Shown one piece after another: positions 824 to 8,042 of a stretch of 8,042 nt of DNA (within the stretch, counting starts at the first letter, position 1; each line of letters begins with the position of its first letter). The translations under genes and the position numbers were made by a program. The notes under the pieces are model-generated. The model did no database searches. It had not been told where the DNA came from and saw only the letters and a program-made list of their open reading frames with translations. Origin of the DNA: Naegleria gruberi. Its lineage: Eukaryota. The DNA lies in assembly GCA_000004985.1 (NCBI GenBank), contig GG739096.1; one strand, written 5' to 3'.

Positions 824-1173
824 ATGATTGAGCAAGTGATTCAAGTTGCTTCATCATATTGGTATTTAGTATTAGCACCTTTGGGATTATTTAAATATGA
901 AGGAGCAATGACAACTTTTGACTTGTCAATCATGTCAGCCTTTTTCTTATTCTTTTGCCCAGTGGTGTTAATTCCATTGTTATTCTTTGGTGTGAGAGCA
1001 CCTTATGGAAAGTTTGCTTCTACTAATAGCAATGAAGGAGAATCAGCAGTGAGCAAATGGTGGAGAAGAATATCAAGTAAGACAGATATTGCCTTGAATG
1101 GTAGATTTGCATTTGCATTCCAAGAATCATTCGCATTATCTTCCTTCCTCTATGTATTATTAACTTGTGAATG
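824..1173 (+). CDS. N-terminal fragment (116 codons) of a 3-oxo-5-alpha-steroid 4-dehydrogenase (steroid 5-alpha-reductase, DET2/SRD5A1-like) family membrane protein; the rest is lost in the N-run
   Basis: ATG at 824 is the first in-frame ATG after a TAA at 764-766; an alternative ATG lies at 908. The translation contains hydrophobic TM-like segments and the motif FFGVRAPYGKF followed by WW..IS.K.DIALNGRFAFAFQESFALSSFLY. This matches the conserved N-terminal region of DET2/SRD5A1-type reductases as recalled (LQAPYGKH...IAWFVMESPTLWL). It is not the TSC13 or DFG10/SRD5A3 type, whose N-termini differ. The reading frame is open when it enters the Ns at 1174; the 824..5737 ORF in the track is an artifact. 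Confidence 0.6.
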
Positions 1174-4100
1174 NNNNNNNNNNNNNNNNNNNNNNNNNNN
1201 NNNNNNNNNNNNNNNNNNNNNNNNNNNNNNNNNNNNNNNNNNNNNNNNNNNNNNNNNNNNNNNNNNNNNNNNNNNNNNNNNNNNNNNNNNNNNNNNNNNN
1301 NNNNNNNNNNNNNNNNNNNNNNNNNNNNNNNNNNNNNNNNNNNNNNNNNNNNNNNNNNNNNNNNNNNNNNNNNNNNNNNNNNNNNNNNNNNNNNNNNNNN
1401 NNNNNNNNNNNNNNNNNNNNNNNNNNNNNNNNNNNNNNNNNNNNNNNNNNNNNNNNNNNNNNNNNNNNNNNNNNNNNNNNNNNNNNNNNNNNNNNNNNNN
1501 NNNNNNNNNNNNNNNNNNNNNNNNNNNNNNNNNNNNNNNNNNNNNNNNNNNNNNNNNNNNNNNNNNNNNNNNNNNNNNNNNNNNNNNNNNNNNNNNNNNN
1601 NNNNNNNNNNNNNNNNNNNNNNNNNNNNNNNNNNNNNNNNNNNNNNNNNNNNNNNNNNNNNNNNNNNNNNNNNNNNNNNNNNNNNNNNNNNNNNNNNNNN
1701 NNNNNNNNNNNNNNNNNNNNNNNNNNNNNNNNNNNNNNNNNNNNNNNNNNNNNNNNNNNNNNNNNNNNNNNNNNNNNNNNNNNNNNNNNNNNNNNNNNNN
1801 NNNNNNNNNNNNNNNNNNNNNNNNNNNNNNNNNNNNNNNNNNNNNNNNNNNNNNNNNNNNNNNNNNNNNNNNNNNNNNNNNNNNNNNNNNNNNNNNNNNN
1901 NNNNNNNNNNNNNNNNNNNNNNNNNNNNNNNNNNNNNNNNNNNNNNNNNNNNNNNNNNNNNNNNNNNNNNNNNNNNNNNNNNNNNNNNNNNNNNNNNNNN
2001 NNNNNNNNNNNNNNNNNNNNNNNNNNNNNNNNNNNNNNNNNNNNNNNNNNNNNNNNNNNNNNNNNNNNNNNNNNNNNNNNNNNNNNNNNNNNNNNNNNNN
2101 NNNNNNNNNNNNNNNNNNNNNNNNNNNNNNNNNNNNNNNNNNNNNNNNNNNNNNNNNNNNNNNNNNNNNNNNNNNNNNNNNNNNNNNNNNNNNNNNNNNN
2201 NNNNNNNNNNNNNNNNNNNNNNNNNNNNNNNNNNNNNNNNNNNNNNNNNNNNNNNNNNNNNNNNNNNNNNNNNNNNNNNNNNNNNNNNNNNNNNNNNNNN
2301 NNNNNNNNNNNNNNNNNNNNNNNNNNNNNNNNNNNNNNNNNNNNNNNNNNNNNNNNNNNNNNNNNNNNNNNNNNNNNNNNNNNNNNNNNNNNNNNNNNNN
2401 NNNNNNNNNNNNNNNNNNNNNNNNNNNNNNNNNNNNNNNNNNNNNNNNNNNNNNNNNNNNNNNNNNNNNNNNNNNNNNNNNNNNNNNNNNNNNNNNNNNN
2501 NNNNNNNNNNNNNNNNNNNNNNNNNNNNNNNNNNNNNNNNNNNNNNNNNNNNNNNNNNNNNNNNNNNNNNNNNNNNNNNNNNNNNNNNNNNNNNNNNNNN
2601 NNNNNNNNNNNNNNNNNNNNNNNNNNNNNNNNNNNNNNNNNNNNNNNNNNNNNNNNNNNNNNNNNNNNNNNNNNNNNNNNNNNNNNNNNNNNNNNNNNNN
2701 NNNNNNNNNNNNNNNNNNNNNNNNNNNNNNNNNNNNNNNNNNNNNNNNNNNNNNNNNNNNNNNNNNNNNNNNNNNNNNNNNNNNNNNNNNNNNNNNNNNN
2801 NNNNNNNNNNNNNNNNNNNNNNNNNNNNNNNNNNNNNNNNNNNNNNNNNNNNNNNNNNNNNNNNNNNNNNNNNNNNNNNNNNNNNNNNNNNNNNNNNNNN
2901 NNNNNNNNNNNNNNNNNNNNNNNNNNNNNNNNNNNNNNNNNNNNNNNNNNNNNNNNNNNNNNNNNNNNNNNNNNNNNNNNNNNNNNNNNNNNNNNNNNNN
3001 NNNNNNNNNNNNNNNNNNNNNNNNNNNNNNNNNNNNNNNNNNNNNNNNNNNNNNNNNNNNNNNNNNNNNNNNNNNNNNNNNNNNNNNNNNNNNNNNNNNN
3101 NNNNNNNNNNNNNNNNNNNNNNNNNNNNNNNNNNNNNNNNNNNNNNNNNNNNNNNNNNNNNNNNNNNNNNNNNNNNNNNNNNNNNNNNNNNNNNNNNNNN
3201 NNNNNNNNNNNNNNNNNNNNNNNNNNNNNNNNNNNNNNNNNNNNNNNNNNNNNNNNNNNNNNNNNNNNNNNNNNNNNNNNNNNNNNNNNNNNNNNNNNNN
3301 NNNNNNNNNNNNNNNNNNNNNNNNNNNNNNNNNNNNNNNNNNNNNNNNNNNNNNNNNNNNNNNNNNNNNNNNNNNNNNNNNNNNNNNNNNNNNNNNNNNN
3401 NNNNNNNNNNNNNNNNNNNNNNNNNNNNNNNNNNNNNNNNNNNNNNNNNNNNNNNNNNNNNNNNNNNNNNNNNNNNNNNNNNNNNNNNNNNNNNNNNNNN
3501 NNNNNNNNNNNNNNNNNNNNNNNNNNNNNNNNNNNNNNNNNNNNNNNNNNNNNNNNNNNNNNNNNNNNNNNNNNNNNNNNNNNNNNNNNNNNNNNNNNNN
3601 NNNNNNNNNNNNNNNNNNNNNNNNNNNNNNNNNNNNNNNNNNNNNNNNNNNNNNNNNNNNNNNNNNNNNNNNNNNNNNNNNNNNNNNNNNNNNNNNNNNN
3701 NNNNNNNNNNNNNNNNNNNNNNNNNNNNNNNNNNNNNNNNNNNNNNNNNNNNNNNNNNNNNNNNNNNNNNNNNNNNNNNNNNNNNNNNNNNNNNNNNNNN
3801 NNNNNNNNNNNNNNNNNNNNNNNNNNNNNNNNNNNNNNNNNNNNNNNNNNNNNNNNNNNNNNNNNNNNNNNNNNNNNNNNNNNNNNNNNNNNNNNNNNNN
3901 NNNNNNNNNNNNNNNNNNNNNNNNNNNNNNNNNNNNNNNNNNNNNNNNNNNNNNNNNNNNNNNNNNNNNNNNNNNNNNNNNNNNNNNNNNNNNNNNNNNN
4001 NNNNNNNNNNNNNNNNNNNNNNNNNNNNNNNNNNNNNNNNNNNNNNNNNNNNNNNNNNNNNNNNNNNNNNNNNNNNNNNNNNNNNNNNNNNNNNNNNNNN

Positions 4101-5710
4101 NNNNNNNNNNNNNNNNNNNNNNNNNNNNNNNNNNNNNNNNNNNNNNNNNNNNNNNNNNNNNNNNNNNNNNNNNNNNNNNNNNNNNNNNNNNNNNNNNNNN
4201 NNNNNNNNNNNNNNNNNNNNNNNNNNNNNNNNNNNNNNNNNNNNNNNNNNNNNNNNNNNNNNNNNNNNNNNNNNNNNNNNNNNNNNNNNNNNNNNNNNNN
4301 NNNNNNNNNNNNNNNNNNNNNNNNNNNNNNNNNNNNNNNNNNNNNNNNNNNNNNNNNNNNNNNNNNNNNNNNNNNNNNNNNNNNNNNNNNNNNNNNNNNN
4401 NNNNNNNNNNNNNNNNNNNNNNNNNNNNNNNNNNNNNNNNNNNNNNNNNNNNNNNNNNNNNNNNNNNNNNNNNNNNNNNNNNNNNNNNNNNNNNNNNNNN
4501 NNNNNNNNNNNNNNNNNNNNNNNNNNNNNNNNNNNNNNNNNNNNNNNNNNNNNNNNNNNNNNNNNNNNNNNNNNNNNNNNNNNNNNNNNNNNNNNNNNNN
4601 NNNNNNNNNNNNNNNNNNNNNNNNNNNNNNNNNNNNNNNNNNNNNNNNNNNNNNNNNNNNNNNNNNNNNNNNNNNNNNNNNNNNNNNNNNNNNNNNNNNN
4701 NNNNNNNNNNNNNNNNNNNNNNNNNNNNNNNNNNNNNNNNNNNNNNNNNNNNNNNNNNNNNNNNNNNNNNNNNNNNNNNNNNNNNNNNNNNNNNNNNNNN
4801 NNNNNNNNNNNNNNNNNNNNNNNNNNNNNNNNNNNNNNNNNNNNNNNNNNNNNNNNNNNNNNNNNNNNNNNNNNNNNNNNNNNNNNNNNNNNNNNNNNNN
4901 NNNNNNNNNNNNNNNNNNNNNNNNNNNNNNNNNNNNNNNNNNNNNNNNNNNNNNNNNNNNNNNNNNNNNNNNNNNNNNNNNNNNNNNNNNNNNNNNNNNN
5001 NNNNNNNNNNNNNNNNNNNNNNNNNNNNNNNNNNNNNNNNNNNNNNNNNNNNNNNNNNNNNNNNNNNNNNNNNNNNNNNNNNNNNNNNNNNNNNNNNNNN
5101 NNNNNNNNNNNNNNNNNNNNNNNNNNNNNNNNNNNNNNNNNNNNNNNNNNNNNNNNNNNNNNNNNNNNNNNNNNNNNNNNNNNNNNNNNNNNNNNNNNNN
5201 NNNNNNNNNNNNNNNNNNNNNNNNNNNNNNNNNNNNNNNNNNNNNNNNNNNNNNNNNNNNNNNNNNNNNNNNNNNNNNNNNNNNNNNNNNNNNNNNNNNN
5301 NNNNNNNNNNNNNNNNNNNNNNNNNNNNNNNNNNNNNNNNNNNNNNNNNNNNNNNNNNNNNNNNNNNNNNNNNNNNNNNNNNNNNNNNNNNNNNNNNNNN
5401 NNNNNNNNNNNNNNNNNNNNNNNNNNNNNNNNNNNNNNNNNNNNNNNNNNNNNNNNNNNNNNNNNNNNNNNNNNNNNNNNNNNNNNNNNNNNNNNNNNNN
5501 NNNNNNNNNNNNNNNNNNNNNNNNNNNNNNNNNNNNNNNNNNNNNNNNNNNNNNNNNNNNNNNNNNNNNNNNNNNNNNNNNNNNNNNNNNNNNNNNNNNN
5601 NNNNNNNNNNNNNNNNNNNNNNNNNNNNNNNNNNNNNNNNNNNNNNNNNNNNNNNNNNNNNNNNNNNNNNNNNNNNNNNNNNNNNNNNNNNNNNNNNNNN
5701 NNNNNNNNNN
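1174..5710. other. Uninterrupted run of 4537 N (assembly gap of estimated size, or hard-masked sequence); no information recoverable
   Basis: Counted directly: the last real bases ATG are at 1171-1173, Ns run from 1174 to 5710, and real sequence resumes with GCT at 5711. All multi-kb ORFs in the track spanning this interval are poly-X artifacts. Confidence 0.99.
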
Positions 5711-6074
5711 GCTGTAGTGGACATTTTCTCTGTTTAAAATTGCAGAATGAGATTTGTAGTTTTTTTTAGATTTTGAAAATATTTTGTTCATCCTTGATAA
5801 CTTGGTGTCATATCGAGAATTGGGGATGATGTTGTTGGAAGGGATGCATTATCGGATAGAATGTGGTTGAGAAGATATTGGCGAGAGATGAGAAAATTGC
5901 TCTCGGAAGCACAATTTTTGAATGGACATCCTGCTAAACGAGTTGATTCAACCAAAGATGTCGAGAGAATGCAAAGATATGATAATACTTTGATTAGGTT
6001 GAGCAATACAGGAGGAGAAGAAGAATGCTAAAGGTAAAAGAATATGAAATGACAATACTTCCTTCTTTGGCTAA

Positions 6075-6716
6075 TTGGATAGATTTGGAAAGTATTCTGA
6101 TACAGTATTGTTAATTTTCTATCATCATATTGAAGGTTTCATTCAGAGAAAAGATCATTATGATCCTTTCATTTTCAAACTCACTAGTGCCATGTTAGTC
6201 ATTGGTTTCAGACTTTTCGCTAGACCAGGTGAATTAGCTAGACTCAAGTGGGGTTATGTTACAAAGCTTAGAAATGGTAACATCAAATTAGATCTCAGTG
6301 GTCACAAAACAGATTTCTTTCTACTAGAAAAGCCGATTACTATTGACAAGCATCTTGAAAATCCTTCAGTGTGTCCAGTGAAATTGCTTTTTGATTACAT
6401 GGACACTGTACAGCATTTCAAAAAAGCAGATTCACCATTGTTTTCATTGCAGGACAATATTTTCTTCAACACTGAAGATGTTTCTCAACTTATCAAGAAT
6501 GCTATGTTCTATGTTGATTCAGAAATCACTGTTTCTGGTCACAGTTTACGTATTGGTGCAACTACTGAGAGTATTATCAAGGGAATTCCCACTCAGGATA
6601 TTATTATGGGGACTAGACATAAGGATGTGAAATCTTTACAACCTTATCAAAGACAAGAAGCTCTTGCAGCTCGCCACTTGTCTACTACTCTCCTTTCTCG
6701 GGACAATATCCATTAG
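6075..6716 (+). CDS. Tyrosine recombinase (phage-integrase family, Cre/lambda-Int type) catalytic domain, complete through the catalytic Tyr. The ORF has no ATG start and no N-terminal core-binding domain, so it is either an exon or C-terminal part of a larger gene, or a pseudogenised mobile-element relic
   Basis: Translation shows the full catalytic signature in canonical order and spacing: Arg I in FARPGELARLKW (R50, codon 6222-6224), Lys in SGHKTD (K78), HxxR in VSGHSLRIGATTE (H156 at 6540-6542, R159), second His in GTRHKDV (H182), and Tyr nine residues later in SLQPYQ (Y191, TAT 6645-6647). Segment-by-segment it parallels Cre (LLRIAEIARIRV / GRTKT / WSGHSARVGAARDMA..IPEIMQAGGWTNVNIVMNYIR) as recalled. 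The 'M' in the ORF track is a TTG (6075-6077) that directly follows an in-frame TAA (6072-6074). The first in-frame ATG (M40, 6192) would delete part of the fold. Confidence 0.75.
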   Translation: MDRFGKYSDTVLLIFYHHIEGFIQRKDHYDPFIFKLTSAMLVIGFRLFARPGELARLKWGYVTKLRNGNIKLDLSGHKTDFFLLEKPITIDKHLENPSVCPVKLLFDYMDTVQHFKKADSPLFSLQDNIFFNTEDVSQLIKNAMFYVDSEITVSGHSLRIGATTESIIKGIPTQDIIMGTRHKDVKSLQPYQRQEALAARHLSTTLLSRDNIH

Positions 6717-6846
6717 TTTATTTATTGTTGGTTTTCTTTTAAGAAACATGTTCTTATCGAAGTTTACTGAGATAAAGTAGTGTTTCTTGAAAACAACAAT
6801 TGAATAAACTAATAATAGAAAGTATGCTCAAAAAAATTGTCATACT

Positions 6847-7974
6847 ATGGTCGCTAAGAAGCCTCAAGATATTGACTCCTCTTCATCTGATGAAGATCTC
6901 CCAGCAGTTGAAGTAGAATACCCCACAACACCAGTGAAAGCAAGAAAACAACAAGCTGCTAAGAAGCTTAGAAAGTTAAAGGCCATGTCACCTGTAGCTA
7001 ATAGAAATAAGCGCAAACAATCTACTTCAGTTTCATCATCTAACAGTGCCTTAGATGATGGTATTTCAACTGTTGTTTCCAGTTCGTTGCTAAGCAATTC
7101 AACTTTGTTGGATAGTTCTTCAACTGCACCCTCTTCGTCAAACAATTCGTCTTCTTCCAATTCAGGTAGAGATAGTTTTGCCAGTAGTTCATCTGAACAT
7201 GATATCATGGCGATCAAAGCCCAAATGCAAGAAATGATTGGAGTTTTGAGAACCGTAACAGGAAATATCTCTGAACTTACTAAGAAAGTTCAGGAGAGAG
7301 AAGAAGAATCAGATGATGATTTTGTTAATCCAGAAGCTATATCTCCAGAAGTTTGGTTACGTCAAACTTATAGAGACCTTAGAAGTTCTTACAATGTTCC
7401 TTCATCTATTGGAGATGATTTATTACTATCTGCAGTATCCTCCGAGATACTTAAAGACCGTAAACAAGAGGAGACCAAGAGAAGAATTCAATATTTGCTC
7501 CTTAAATACAAGGATGTGATTTCCAAGTTTGCCCCAGACATTAGATTGGATGAGATTAACAGTATTGGTTATTCTAAACTAGTAGAGTTAACTCAAATCA
7601 AAATTGAATTGTTGGAATATGCATTGAATTCTCCACTTGATTTTACAGTCATGACAGAGATTACAGAACTTTGTAGAATGATTTGCAAAGTTGAAGCCCT
7701 CTTCCTTAAAGAAGGTTTACAAGTTTCCACTTTCGATGTTGGTAGAGAATTCCTTAACAGATACATTTCTACTAATAGTTTCGAAACTGCTGCCGAAAGT
7801 GAACTTCATAATATTAGAACAACATATCATTACTACAAAGCAACCAAGCAGCAACAAGGTCCAAAGGGAATTACCAAGAAGTATTCTAAGAAGAAACCGT
7901 TTCAAAAGAAAAACAATAAGGGTCAAGGAAACGGTGGTAAATTCCAAGGAAAAGATAAGGATAAGTCAGAATGA
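6847..7974 (+). CDS. Hypothetical 375-aa protein: Lys-rich N-terminus, long Ser/Asn-rich low-complexity stretch, central region with charged heptad-like segments, and a strongly basic Gly/Lys C-terminal tail. Function unknown; a Gag-like or nucleic-acid-binding protein is one possibility
   Basis: ATG at 6847 with A at -3 and G at +4. There are 375 codons with no CTG and a codon preference matching the other genes in the window, ending at TGA 7972-7974. The C-terminal 30 residues (KKYSKKKPFQKKNNKGQGNGGKFQGKDKDKSE) are highly basic. I recognise no confident homolog. The antisense ORFs 6864..7217 and 7717..7947 are mirror artifacts. Confidence 0.55.
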   Translation: MVAKKPQDIDSSSSDEDLPAVEVEYPTTPVKARKQQAAKKLRKLKAMSPVANRNKRKQSTSVSSSNSALDDGISTVVSSSLLSNSTLLDSSSTAPSSSNNSSSSNSGRDSFASSSSEHDIMAIKAQMQEMIGVLRTVTGNISELTKKVQEREEESDDDFVNPEAISPEVWLRQTYRDLRSSYNVPSSIGDDLLLSAVSSEILKDRKQEETKRRIQYLLLKYKDVISKFAPDIRLDEINSIGYSKLVELTQIKIELLEYALNSPLDFTVMTEITELCRMICKVEALFLKEGLQVSTFDVGREFLNRYISTNSFETAAESELHNIRTTYHYYKATKQQQGPKGITKKYSKKKPFQKKNNKGQGNGGKFQGKDKDKSE

Positions 7975-7985
7975 CTCTTCCACTC

Positions 7986-8001
7986 CCTCCTTCCAAGGAG
8001 G
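7986..8001. repeat. Perfect 7-bp inverted repeat with 2-nt spacer (CCTCCTT CC AAGGAGG), starting 11 nt after the TGA stop of the 6847..7974 ORF; it could form a short RNA hairpin
   Basis: Base-by-base pairing was checked: 7986-7992 is complementary to 7995-8001. It is local GC-rich sequence in an otherwise AT-rich context. Confidence 0.5.
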
Positions 8002-8042
8002 AAGATTACAACAGTTTGGAAAAAGTGGCAAATCTCCCCAAA

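Follow-up and report, generated by a model that had tools for sequence, protein, structure and literature searches.

Retrotransposons that encode a reverse transcriptase (RT), an RNase H, a methyltransferase (MT) and a tyrosine recombinase (YR), and that have neither protease nor integrase, define the DIRS group (PMC3266345, PMC4157794). Its DIRS1-like members, such as DIRS-1 of Dictyostelium and AcasDIRS1 of Acanthamoeba (3974 bp), carry a putative GAG first, followed by a pol gene for RT, RNase H and a Dam-like domain and by the YR gene, and a long overlap of the pol and YR open reading frames (ORFs) is found in about half of those described (PMC3266345). PAT/Toc3-like elements have an MT-containing pol, a YR downstream in the same orientation and a Gag without zinc finger (PMC4157794). 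Piednoel et al. (2011) reported seven DIRS copies in Naegleria gruberi that were DIRS1-like by RT, MT and YR similarity, criteria that favoured DIRS1-like over PAT, and judged them too damaged for further analysis (PMC3266345). Here, we describe an N. gruberi locus on contig GG739096.1 (assembly GCA_000004985.1) in which a 375-amino-acid ORF follows a recombinase ORF; 'the window' denotes the whole stretch of 8042 nt that was analyzed.

We conclude that this ORF is very probably ORF1 ('Gag') of a recently active, multi-copy retrotransposon of the DIRS order, which uses a YR. The complete unit shares with DIRS1-like elements the GAG-first order, a pol that encodes RT, RNase H and a putative Dam-like domain, the YR, the lack of protease and integrase, a size of ∼4 kb and a long overlap of the YR frame with pol that leaves the part coding for the catalytic YR domain free at the 3′ end. 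With PAT/Toc3-like elements it has in common the MT-containing pol, the co-oriented downstream YR, the Gag without zinc finger and an element 5′ end that is directly repeated after the YR. Whereas DIRS1-like elements have inverted terminal repeats of 30–150 nt and an internal complementary region, the Naegleria units are joined head to tail by a palindrome, and their YR-frame overlap covers the entire pol, beginning at the gag stop codon. Compared with PAT/Toc3-like elements, built A1-body-B1-A2-B2, a B2 after A2 is unseen, and a single split-direct-repeat element does not account for the arrangement in the window, a result that applies to this copy alone. Both the class of element and its occurrence in N. 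gruberi have been published before; the unit presented here is better resolved than the domain-level report of 2011.

ORF1 and its copies in Naegleria gruberi

The ORF runs on the plus strand from an ATG at 6847 to a TGA ending at 7974 and encodes 375 amino acids. As the initial annotation had it, it is co-oriented with a recombinase ORF (6075–6716, plus strand, stop at 6714–6716), from which the gag ATG is separated by 130 nt. An N. gruberi 'predicted protein' (P0001), annotated at two loci (EFC35641 and EFC46443), is 100% identical to the product, so that the yeast origin suggested at first is wrong; N. gruberi belongs to Heterolobosea. Counted among gene models, at least seven N. gruberi sequences on different scaffolds are >90% identical to ORF1, several of them truncated. 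The 90% cluster holds two further full-length N. gruberi copies (P0005 and P0007), a 107-amino-acid N. gruberi fragment (P0004), a 569-amino-acid N. gruberi gene model that splices ORF1 onto the recombinase C-terminus (P0006) and a 372-amino-acid metagenome copy (P0008); an N. gruberi copy with an interruption past residue 178 (P0002) belongs to a separate cluster. Since ORF1 occurs in multiple copies with full-length, truncated and interrupted forms, it bears the signature of a mobile element.

P0008 is encoded on L002, a 4324-nt ENA metagenome contig that is 98.6–99% identical to the window and contains the complete unit. The gag genes of the window and L002 are distinguished by three synonymous and two non-synonymous changes and by one in-frame deletion of three codons. 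The parts of the element in the window are listed here with the evidence for each; further L numbers denote loci used for comparison.

6847..7974, plus strand: very probable ORF1 ('Gag') of a DIRS-order retrotransposon, 375 amino acids, intact (identity to EFC35641/EFC46443; first-ORF position in L002, L003, L004, L007, L009 and L013)
6111..6716, plus strand: 3′ two-thirds of a YR gene, 201 codons and stop, from a 5′-truncated upstream unit (L002 match)
6717..6846, plus strand: unit-to-unit spacer, from YR stop to gag ATG (palindrome at 6712–6813; L002 unit boundary at 6748/6749)
7973..8042, plus strand: start of pol in the +1 frame relative to gag, cut off at the window end, with a GGRLQQF motif at 7997–8017 (alignment with L002 and L001; frame analysis)
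7972..7975, plus strand: gag stop TGA followed by C, candidate recoding site (TGA-C in eight loci of seven families)

A HMMER search over 1.84 billion representative proteins returned 16 relatives of ORF1 and no more. These homologues are 21–41% identical to it and include a second N. gruberi family (P0022, 27–28% identity) and several metagenome proteins; all are built alike: the N-terminus is disordered, a helix and then a conserved helical core follow, and the tail is basic or rich in Asn. Since the identical protein is annotated twice in N. gruberi and homologues exist at 21–41% identity, ORF1 is not a chance ORF. The ORF1 of L009, missed by HMMER, was aligned to the ORF1 profile by hhalign with 96.3% probability (E 1.8e-9). 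A first ORF lies directly 5′ of pol in all six comparison loci named above; scores for homology to the ORF1 family were obtained for those of L003, L004 and L009, the first ORFs of L007 and L013 being unscored. Pattern scans of JGI metagenome proteins and of IMG/VR gave nothing. A DNA-pattern scan of JGI for the gag-pol junction returned a single locus (L006), which has a bacterial-looking ORF pattern and was dismissed as a chance match.

Four regions can be distinguished in the ORF1 protein.

6847..7188, plus strand: N-terminal disordered region with an acidic patch, a Lys-rich patch and a Ser-rich tract (residues 59–117) (pLDDT, the predicted local confidence score; composition)
7189..7299, plus strand: long amphipathic helix, residues 115–151, likely coiled-coil oligomerisation segment (AlphaFold; heptad register)
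7339..7854, plus strand: conserved all-alpha core, residues about 165–336 (conserved columns; pLDDT; hhalign against L009 ORF1)
7855..7971, plus strand: Lys/Gly/Gln-rich basic tail without zinc knuckle, putatively nucleic-acid binding (composition; homologue tails basic or Asn-rich)

The composition described in the initial annotation, namely a Lys-rich N-terminus, a Ser-rich tract, heptad-like stretches and a basic tail without CCHC knuckle, was confirmed. Residues 1–58 have an isoelectric point (pI) of 10.1, 28 of the 59 residues from 59 to 117 (nt 7021–7197) are Ser, and the tail (residues 337–375) has 13 Lys in 39 residues and a pI of 10.3; the whole protein contains two Cys, and a CCHC knuckle is absent. 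The coiled-coil check proposed there gave a clean heptad register for residues 115–152, with hydrophobic residues at 9 of 10 a/d positions, and AlphaFold predicts a single long helix for residues 115–151 (pLDDT about 80). In the same model, residues 1–111 are disordered (pLDDT <50), and the core has a pLDDT of about 80–93 over residues 170–290, falling to ∼50 near 230–240 and past 290. The N-terminal region shows little conservation across homologues. Known RNA-binding ORF1 and Gag proteins of retroelements combine a coiled coil with a basic tail in the same way.

Searches with ORF1 did not connect it to a known capsid. Pfam gave no family (the best match, DUF4495 at E 0.06, was judged noise), a profile search of PDB sequences returned only coiled-coil phosphoproteins at E > 0.3, and Foldseek with the ORF1 model against PDB and viral models found nothing at E ≤ 0.001. 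The features of retroviral and long terminal repeat (LTR) Gag proteins, that is, the capsid fold with N- and C-terminal domains (NTD/CTD), a match to Pfam Gag families and a CX2CX4HX4C zinc knuckle, were not found in ORF1. Of the Gag-like partner proposed in the initial annotation, the first-ORF position and the architecture stand, whereas similarity in sequence or fold to retroviral Gag does not, and the profile searches suggested there (Pfam, PDB profiles) matched no Gag family. ORF1 is a 'Gag' by position and architecture only, homology to retroviral capsids being undetected. The likeness to LINE-1 ORF1p and to LTR or retroviral Gag is a functional analogy only: a first ORF 5′ of pol, predicted to be made in excess through recoding, with an oligomerising or coiled-coil segment and a basic nucleic-acid-binding region. 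Unlike these proteins, ORF1 has no detectable homology to them, no capsid NTD/CTD, no RNA recognition motif or CTD and no CCHC.

The complete unit and its head-to-tail arrangement

The window itself covers ORF1, the 3′ part of YR and 70 nt of pol, and the full domain set was read from L002. Positions 61–1347 of L002 match window positions 6749–8042 at 98.6%, and positions 3443–4324 match 6113–6994 at 99%. ORF1 (L002 159–1277) is followed by pol (up to 3150), in the +1 frame, and by YR (3153–4046, 297 amino acids), back in the gag frame. Against Pfam, pol matched RVT_1 (E 2.9e-26) and the RNase H-like RVT_3 (E 0.017), YR matched Phage_integrase (E 1.6e-4), and pol residues 485–578 matched PF05869 (Dam) with E 7.5e-4 and 19.6 bits, under Pfam's gathering score of 28.1. 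PF05869 is also precomputed on the related pol proteins P0041–P0044 and on products of L004 and L008, and the evidence for a putative Dam-like methyltransferase at the pol C-terminus is weak but consistent. No further Pfam domain was found on L002, and neither a DDE integrase nor an aspartic protease. The unit measures 4018 nt (L002 61–4078), is almost entirely coding and has the ends TGTTCTT... and ...AAGAAACA. An RT/RNase H pol and a YR are thus present in one unit with a gag-like ORF 5′ of pol, as in the DIRS order, and the Dam-like domain is the feature that sets the DIRS group (DIRS1-like and PAT) apart from Ngaro/VIPER. A Crypton, which is a YR-only DNA transposon, was rejected as RT is present in the unit.

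The recombinase ORF of the window (6075–6716) matches Phage_integrase weakly (E 1.1e-4, 22.5 bits, under the gathering score of 27.1). Its homology to the element begins only at about 6111 (corresponding to L002 3441), indicating a start other than the TTG at 6075; 201 codons and the stop (604 coding nt) remain, and 5′ of 6111 nothing matches the element. Since homology stops at about 6111 and positions 5711–6110 are unrelated to the element, the window YR comes from a 5′-truncated unit. Past the YR stop, the 130-nt spacer is followed by a second unit, which matches L002 colinearly over 1294 nt that take in all of gag and the beginning of pol. The window therefore contains two tandem head-to-tail units, the first of them truncated, and not of one element in an odd gene order.

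The same arrangement is seen elsewhere. In L002, positions 4079–4324 repeat positions 61–306 at 97%. Positions 1–60 of this contig are an unrelated flank that meets the element directly at TGTTCTT, which places the real left end at L002 61, corresponding to window position 6749 (TGTTCTTATCG...). L008 (1–4127) closes on itself through an exact overlap of 30 nt to give a 4097-nt cycle, of which L009 and L010 are 100% identical circular permutations; the three are Logan assemblies of the runs ERR2815209, ERR2815274 and ERR2815266. The L008 element is a related one (45% pol identity), and the cycle implies circular or tandem copies of it in its organism. In L004, a gag-like N-terminus begins 18 nt after the YR stop. 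The proposal in the initial annotation that ORF1 protein and recombinase belong to one DIRS-type element family is borne out by L002, and its view that a recombinase-then-gag order reflects tandem copies agrees with the head-to-tail units in the window, L002, L004 and the L008 cycle. An RT hidden in the N-run, also proposed there, has no visible support: positions 5711–6110 are unrelated to the element, and the RT of the intact unit lies downstream, with pol starting at 7973. It is possible that an insertion at 6110 hides the remainder of the upstream unit in the N-run.

The second copy in L002 (4079–4324) carries, at the 5′ end of its gag, a change of the ATG to ATA and four further changes. 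All of these fall in codons, leaving the non-coding part unchanged, and one, K31N, is shared with the N. gruberi fragment P0004. This suggests that the segment is a distinct, decayed subfamily neighbour. The left flank of L002 and the truncation point of the window might form a short inverted repeat (L002 46–77 versus 3424–3455), but with 72% complementarity over 32 nt this candidate was discarded as too weak.

The spacer between the units is an imperfect palindrome of ∼100 nt (window 6712–6813) with a folding energy of −21.4 kcal/mol (z −5.3), which none of 200 shuffles equalled; the spacer on its own gives −19.5 kcal/mol (z −4.1). The L002 unit boundary (window 6748/6749) falls within its inner stem. 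A comparable palindrome lies just past the YR stop in L007 (about 3995–4109, z −4.2) and a weaker one in L009 (926–987), with a perfect GTTCTTC-AGA-GAAGAAC hairpin at its centre, and motifs of the GTTCT/AGAAC type occur near the centre of the YR-to-gag spacer palindromes. This palindrome is the only inverted structure in L002 and the window. We consider the palindromic spacer a likely circle or concatemer junction and recombination site, as judged from its sequence. Such a sequence is expected where the right end of an element is closed onto its left end and both ends are short inverted repeats, and it is equally expected of the internal complementary region of a DIRS1-like element.

The UGA-C junction and the open gag/YR frame

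The gag stop is TGA with a C after it in all eight loci compared, which represent seven families, and pol follows in the +1 frame with a first codon GAC that uses the final two bases of the gag stop. The positions of these sites, and those of the open gag/YR frame described below, were obtained by frame analysis.

Window: TGA-C at 7972–7975
L002: TGA-C at 1275–1278; open gag/YR frame at 1278–4046, with two stops
L001: TGA-C at 1066–1069
L003: TGA-C at 1414–1417
L004: TGA-C at 994–997; open gag/YR frame at 997–3645
L007: TGA-C at 1198–1201; open gag/YR frame at 1201–3981
L008: open gag/YR frame at 1040–3850
L009: TGA-C at 2174–2177
L013: TGA-C at 956–959; open gag/YR frame at 959–3721

A conserved (G)GRL motif of pol lies 2–11 codons past the gag stop in the eight loci, among which no usable pol ATG has been conserved. 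Shifty-stop +1 frameshifting is known from bacterial RF2 (CUU-UGA-C), antizyme (UCC-UGA-U) and the stop-codon frameshifts of Euplotes. The Naegleria junction resembles these systems in that UGA followed by C ends the upstream ORF and the downstream ORF lies in the +1 frame and reads GAC. It differs from them in that the codon 5′ of the UGA is variable (GAA, AAG, TAC, GGC, AGA or CAA), no conserved stimulator was identified near UGA-C and the site is known from sequence alone. UGA-C looks like a conserved shifty-stop +1 frameshift site. Two other candidates were rejected: the ATG that shares bases with the gag stop (GAATGAC) could not start pol, being out of frame with it, and a hairpin past the gag stop (CCTCCTTCCAAGGAGG), considered as a frameshift stimulator, is conserved only in the two closest families and is explained by the GGRL codons.

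The gag frame is also the frame of YR. From the gag TGA to the YR stop, this frame contains no stop at all in L004, L007, L008 and L013, across 616–623 pol codons, whereas codon shuffles predict 28–44 stops (minimum 16–24) and the third frame contains 58–70. In these four loci, Gag and YR are parted by a single UGA. In L002 the frame contains two stops compared with 47 expected. A long YR/pol overlap of this kind is a DIRS1-like trait. In the distant family L011 (30% pol identity) the layout differs: the gag stop is TAA, and pol begins at an ATG of its own and lies in the −1 frame. An overlap that begins at the gag stop, together with the conserved UGA-C, suggests that one site could give Gag, Gag-Pol and a Gag-YR readthrough product.

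The start of pol in L001 is interrupted at about 1170–1260. The interrupting sequence is short, contains inverted repeats (CACATAATGGCATAAA...TTTATGCCATTATGT) and looks like a small inserted element.

Proposed function and alternative readings

If the ORF is ORF1 of such an element, its protein would act like other retroelement first-ORF proteins. The coiled-coil helix would multimerise and the basic tail would bind and chaperone element RNA or cDNA, and disordered N-terminus, helix, helical core and basic tail would together form the particle in which pol works. At the gag UGA most ribosomes would terminate and a minority would shift by +1 to give Gag-Pol. The cDNA would be circularised or multimerised and then inserted by YR. 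The palindromic spacer would represent the closed junction and probably the recombination site, which would account for the head-to-tail units.

A wider reading joins these points, and we put it forward tentatively, as a possibility that has the odds against it. The whole unit would be one frame, made up of gag, about 620 'overlap' codons and YR and broken by the gag UGA only, with pol nested in the +1 frame. UGA-C would act as a three-way switch, at which termination gives Gag, a +1 shift gives Gag-Pol and readthrough gives a Gag-X-YR fusion. The predicted peptides at the window UGA are ...DKDKSE-DSSTPSFQGGRL for the +1 shift and ...KSE-X-LFHSLLPRRK for readthrough. Copies would be maintained as concatemers of head-to-tail units, or as circles, closed at the palindromic junction, instead of as units with inverted terminal repeats and internal complementary regions.

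Alternatively, the window might contain just one element, bounded by PAT- or Ngaro-type split direct repeats (A1-body-B1-A2-B2), the YR tail and gag start being its internal B1-A2 junction. L002 taken alone fits this structure, with a flank, an A1 from position 61, the body, a B1 that ends at 4078 and an A2 (4079–4324) at the contig end; the lost gag ATG and the changes confined to coding sequence would be possible for a repeat that is itself non-coding, and split direct repeats would give rise to an assembly cycle like that of L008 as well. However, the colinearity of the window with L002 past the junction would require an 'A2' of >1.3 kb, and the left boundary of the window YR at 6110/6111 is not a junction between an A end and a B start, since positions 5711–6110 are unlike any part of the element. 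In addition, A1 and A2 of L002 differ by 2.8%, which exceeds the ∼1% between L002 and the window copy and is unexpected for repeats that are regenerated together at insertion. We therefore regard a single split-repeat element as improbable, and favor two tandem units.

Granting a retroelement, ORF1p could still be another kind of accessory factor, for instance a protein that interacts with the host, or a partner of YR that binds DNA or sets the direction of recombination. The failure to find a capsid-like fold, a zinc knuckle or a Pfam family and the confinement of the ORF1 family to a small clade (the 16 matches mentioned above) would agree with such a role, but the first-ORF position is invariant and joined by frame directly to pol in all families examined, and coiled coil and basic tail are combined as in the RNA-binding retroelement proteins mentioned above; an accessory role appears somewhat less probable still than the split-repeat structure. 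The initial annotation had also considered an ordinary nucleolar or chromatin protein with a coincidental position. For such a single-copy cellular protein next to a recombinase pseudogene only composition speaks, the Ser-rich, Lys-rich, low-complexity character being common to many nucleolar proteins. We reject this explanation, to which we assign a negligible probability: N. gruberi has ORF1 in at least seven nearly identical copies spread over different scaffolds, several of these copies being truncated, pol in the +1 frame invariably follows it, and in the gene model P0006 it is fused to YR.

Several observations weigh against the assignment to an active DIRS-order element with a Gag-like ORF1. 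Compared with L002 and the distant L001, the window copy has one T fewer in each of two T-runs (8015–8017 and 8035); these two 1-nt deletions lie inside the first 22 codons of pol and break its frame, so the copy may be non-autonomous. Either it is decaying or the T-run deletions are sequencing errors. Inverted terminal repeats and a separate internal complementary region, as in DIRS1, were not found in L002 or the window, which do not include single-copy termini with both flanks. L002 stops inside A2, so that B2 was never observed, and split direct repeats are possible for this contig. The Dam match on L002 pol is sub-threshold, and the copy number was drawn from N. gruberi gene models alone. 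Finally, the AlphaFold model of ORF1 is of moderate confidence (mean pLDDT 60, from 13 sequences), so that a structural or chaperone role of ORF1 follows solely from position and composition.

With the assignment to a DIRS-order ORF1, the N. gruberi 'predicted proteins' EFC35641, EFC46443, EFC43433, EFC36891 and others should be masked as mobile-element genes. The ORF1 family defined here is lineage-restricted and has neither a Pfam model nor a recognizable capsid fold, and it adds to the indications that 'Gag' proteins among tyrosine-recombinase retroelements do not all share an ancestor. If UGA-C, the +1 pol and the open gag frame represent true recoding, they would show how these elements set the ratios of their three products. 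Further work would best be directed at this layout and at the palindrome that joins the units head to tail.

The rest of the window contains two further features without strand.

5711..6110: element-unrelated sequence, flank or unrelated insertion, from the N-run to the truncated YR (no BLAST similarity, no Pfam match)
1174..5710: assembly gap of 4537 N, outside the element as far as visible

The 400 nt of the former showed no BLAST similarity to L002 or to the other loci, and Pfam gave no match for its ORFs or for the left-hand ORF at 824–1172. An Rfam search of 5711–8042 gave sub-threshold small nucleolar RNA noise and nothing else. An open frame at 5797–6033 (plus strand) closes at a TAA (6031–6033) and ends ...RMWLRRYWREMRKLLSEAQFLNGHPAKRVDSTKDVERMQRYDNTLIRLSNTGGEEEC. 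The ORF at 824–1172 (plus strand) has a membrane-protein-like N-terminus and runs into the N-run. Both are presumably host genes flanking the insertion.

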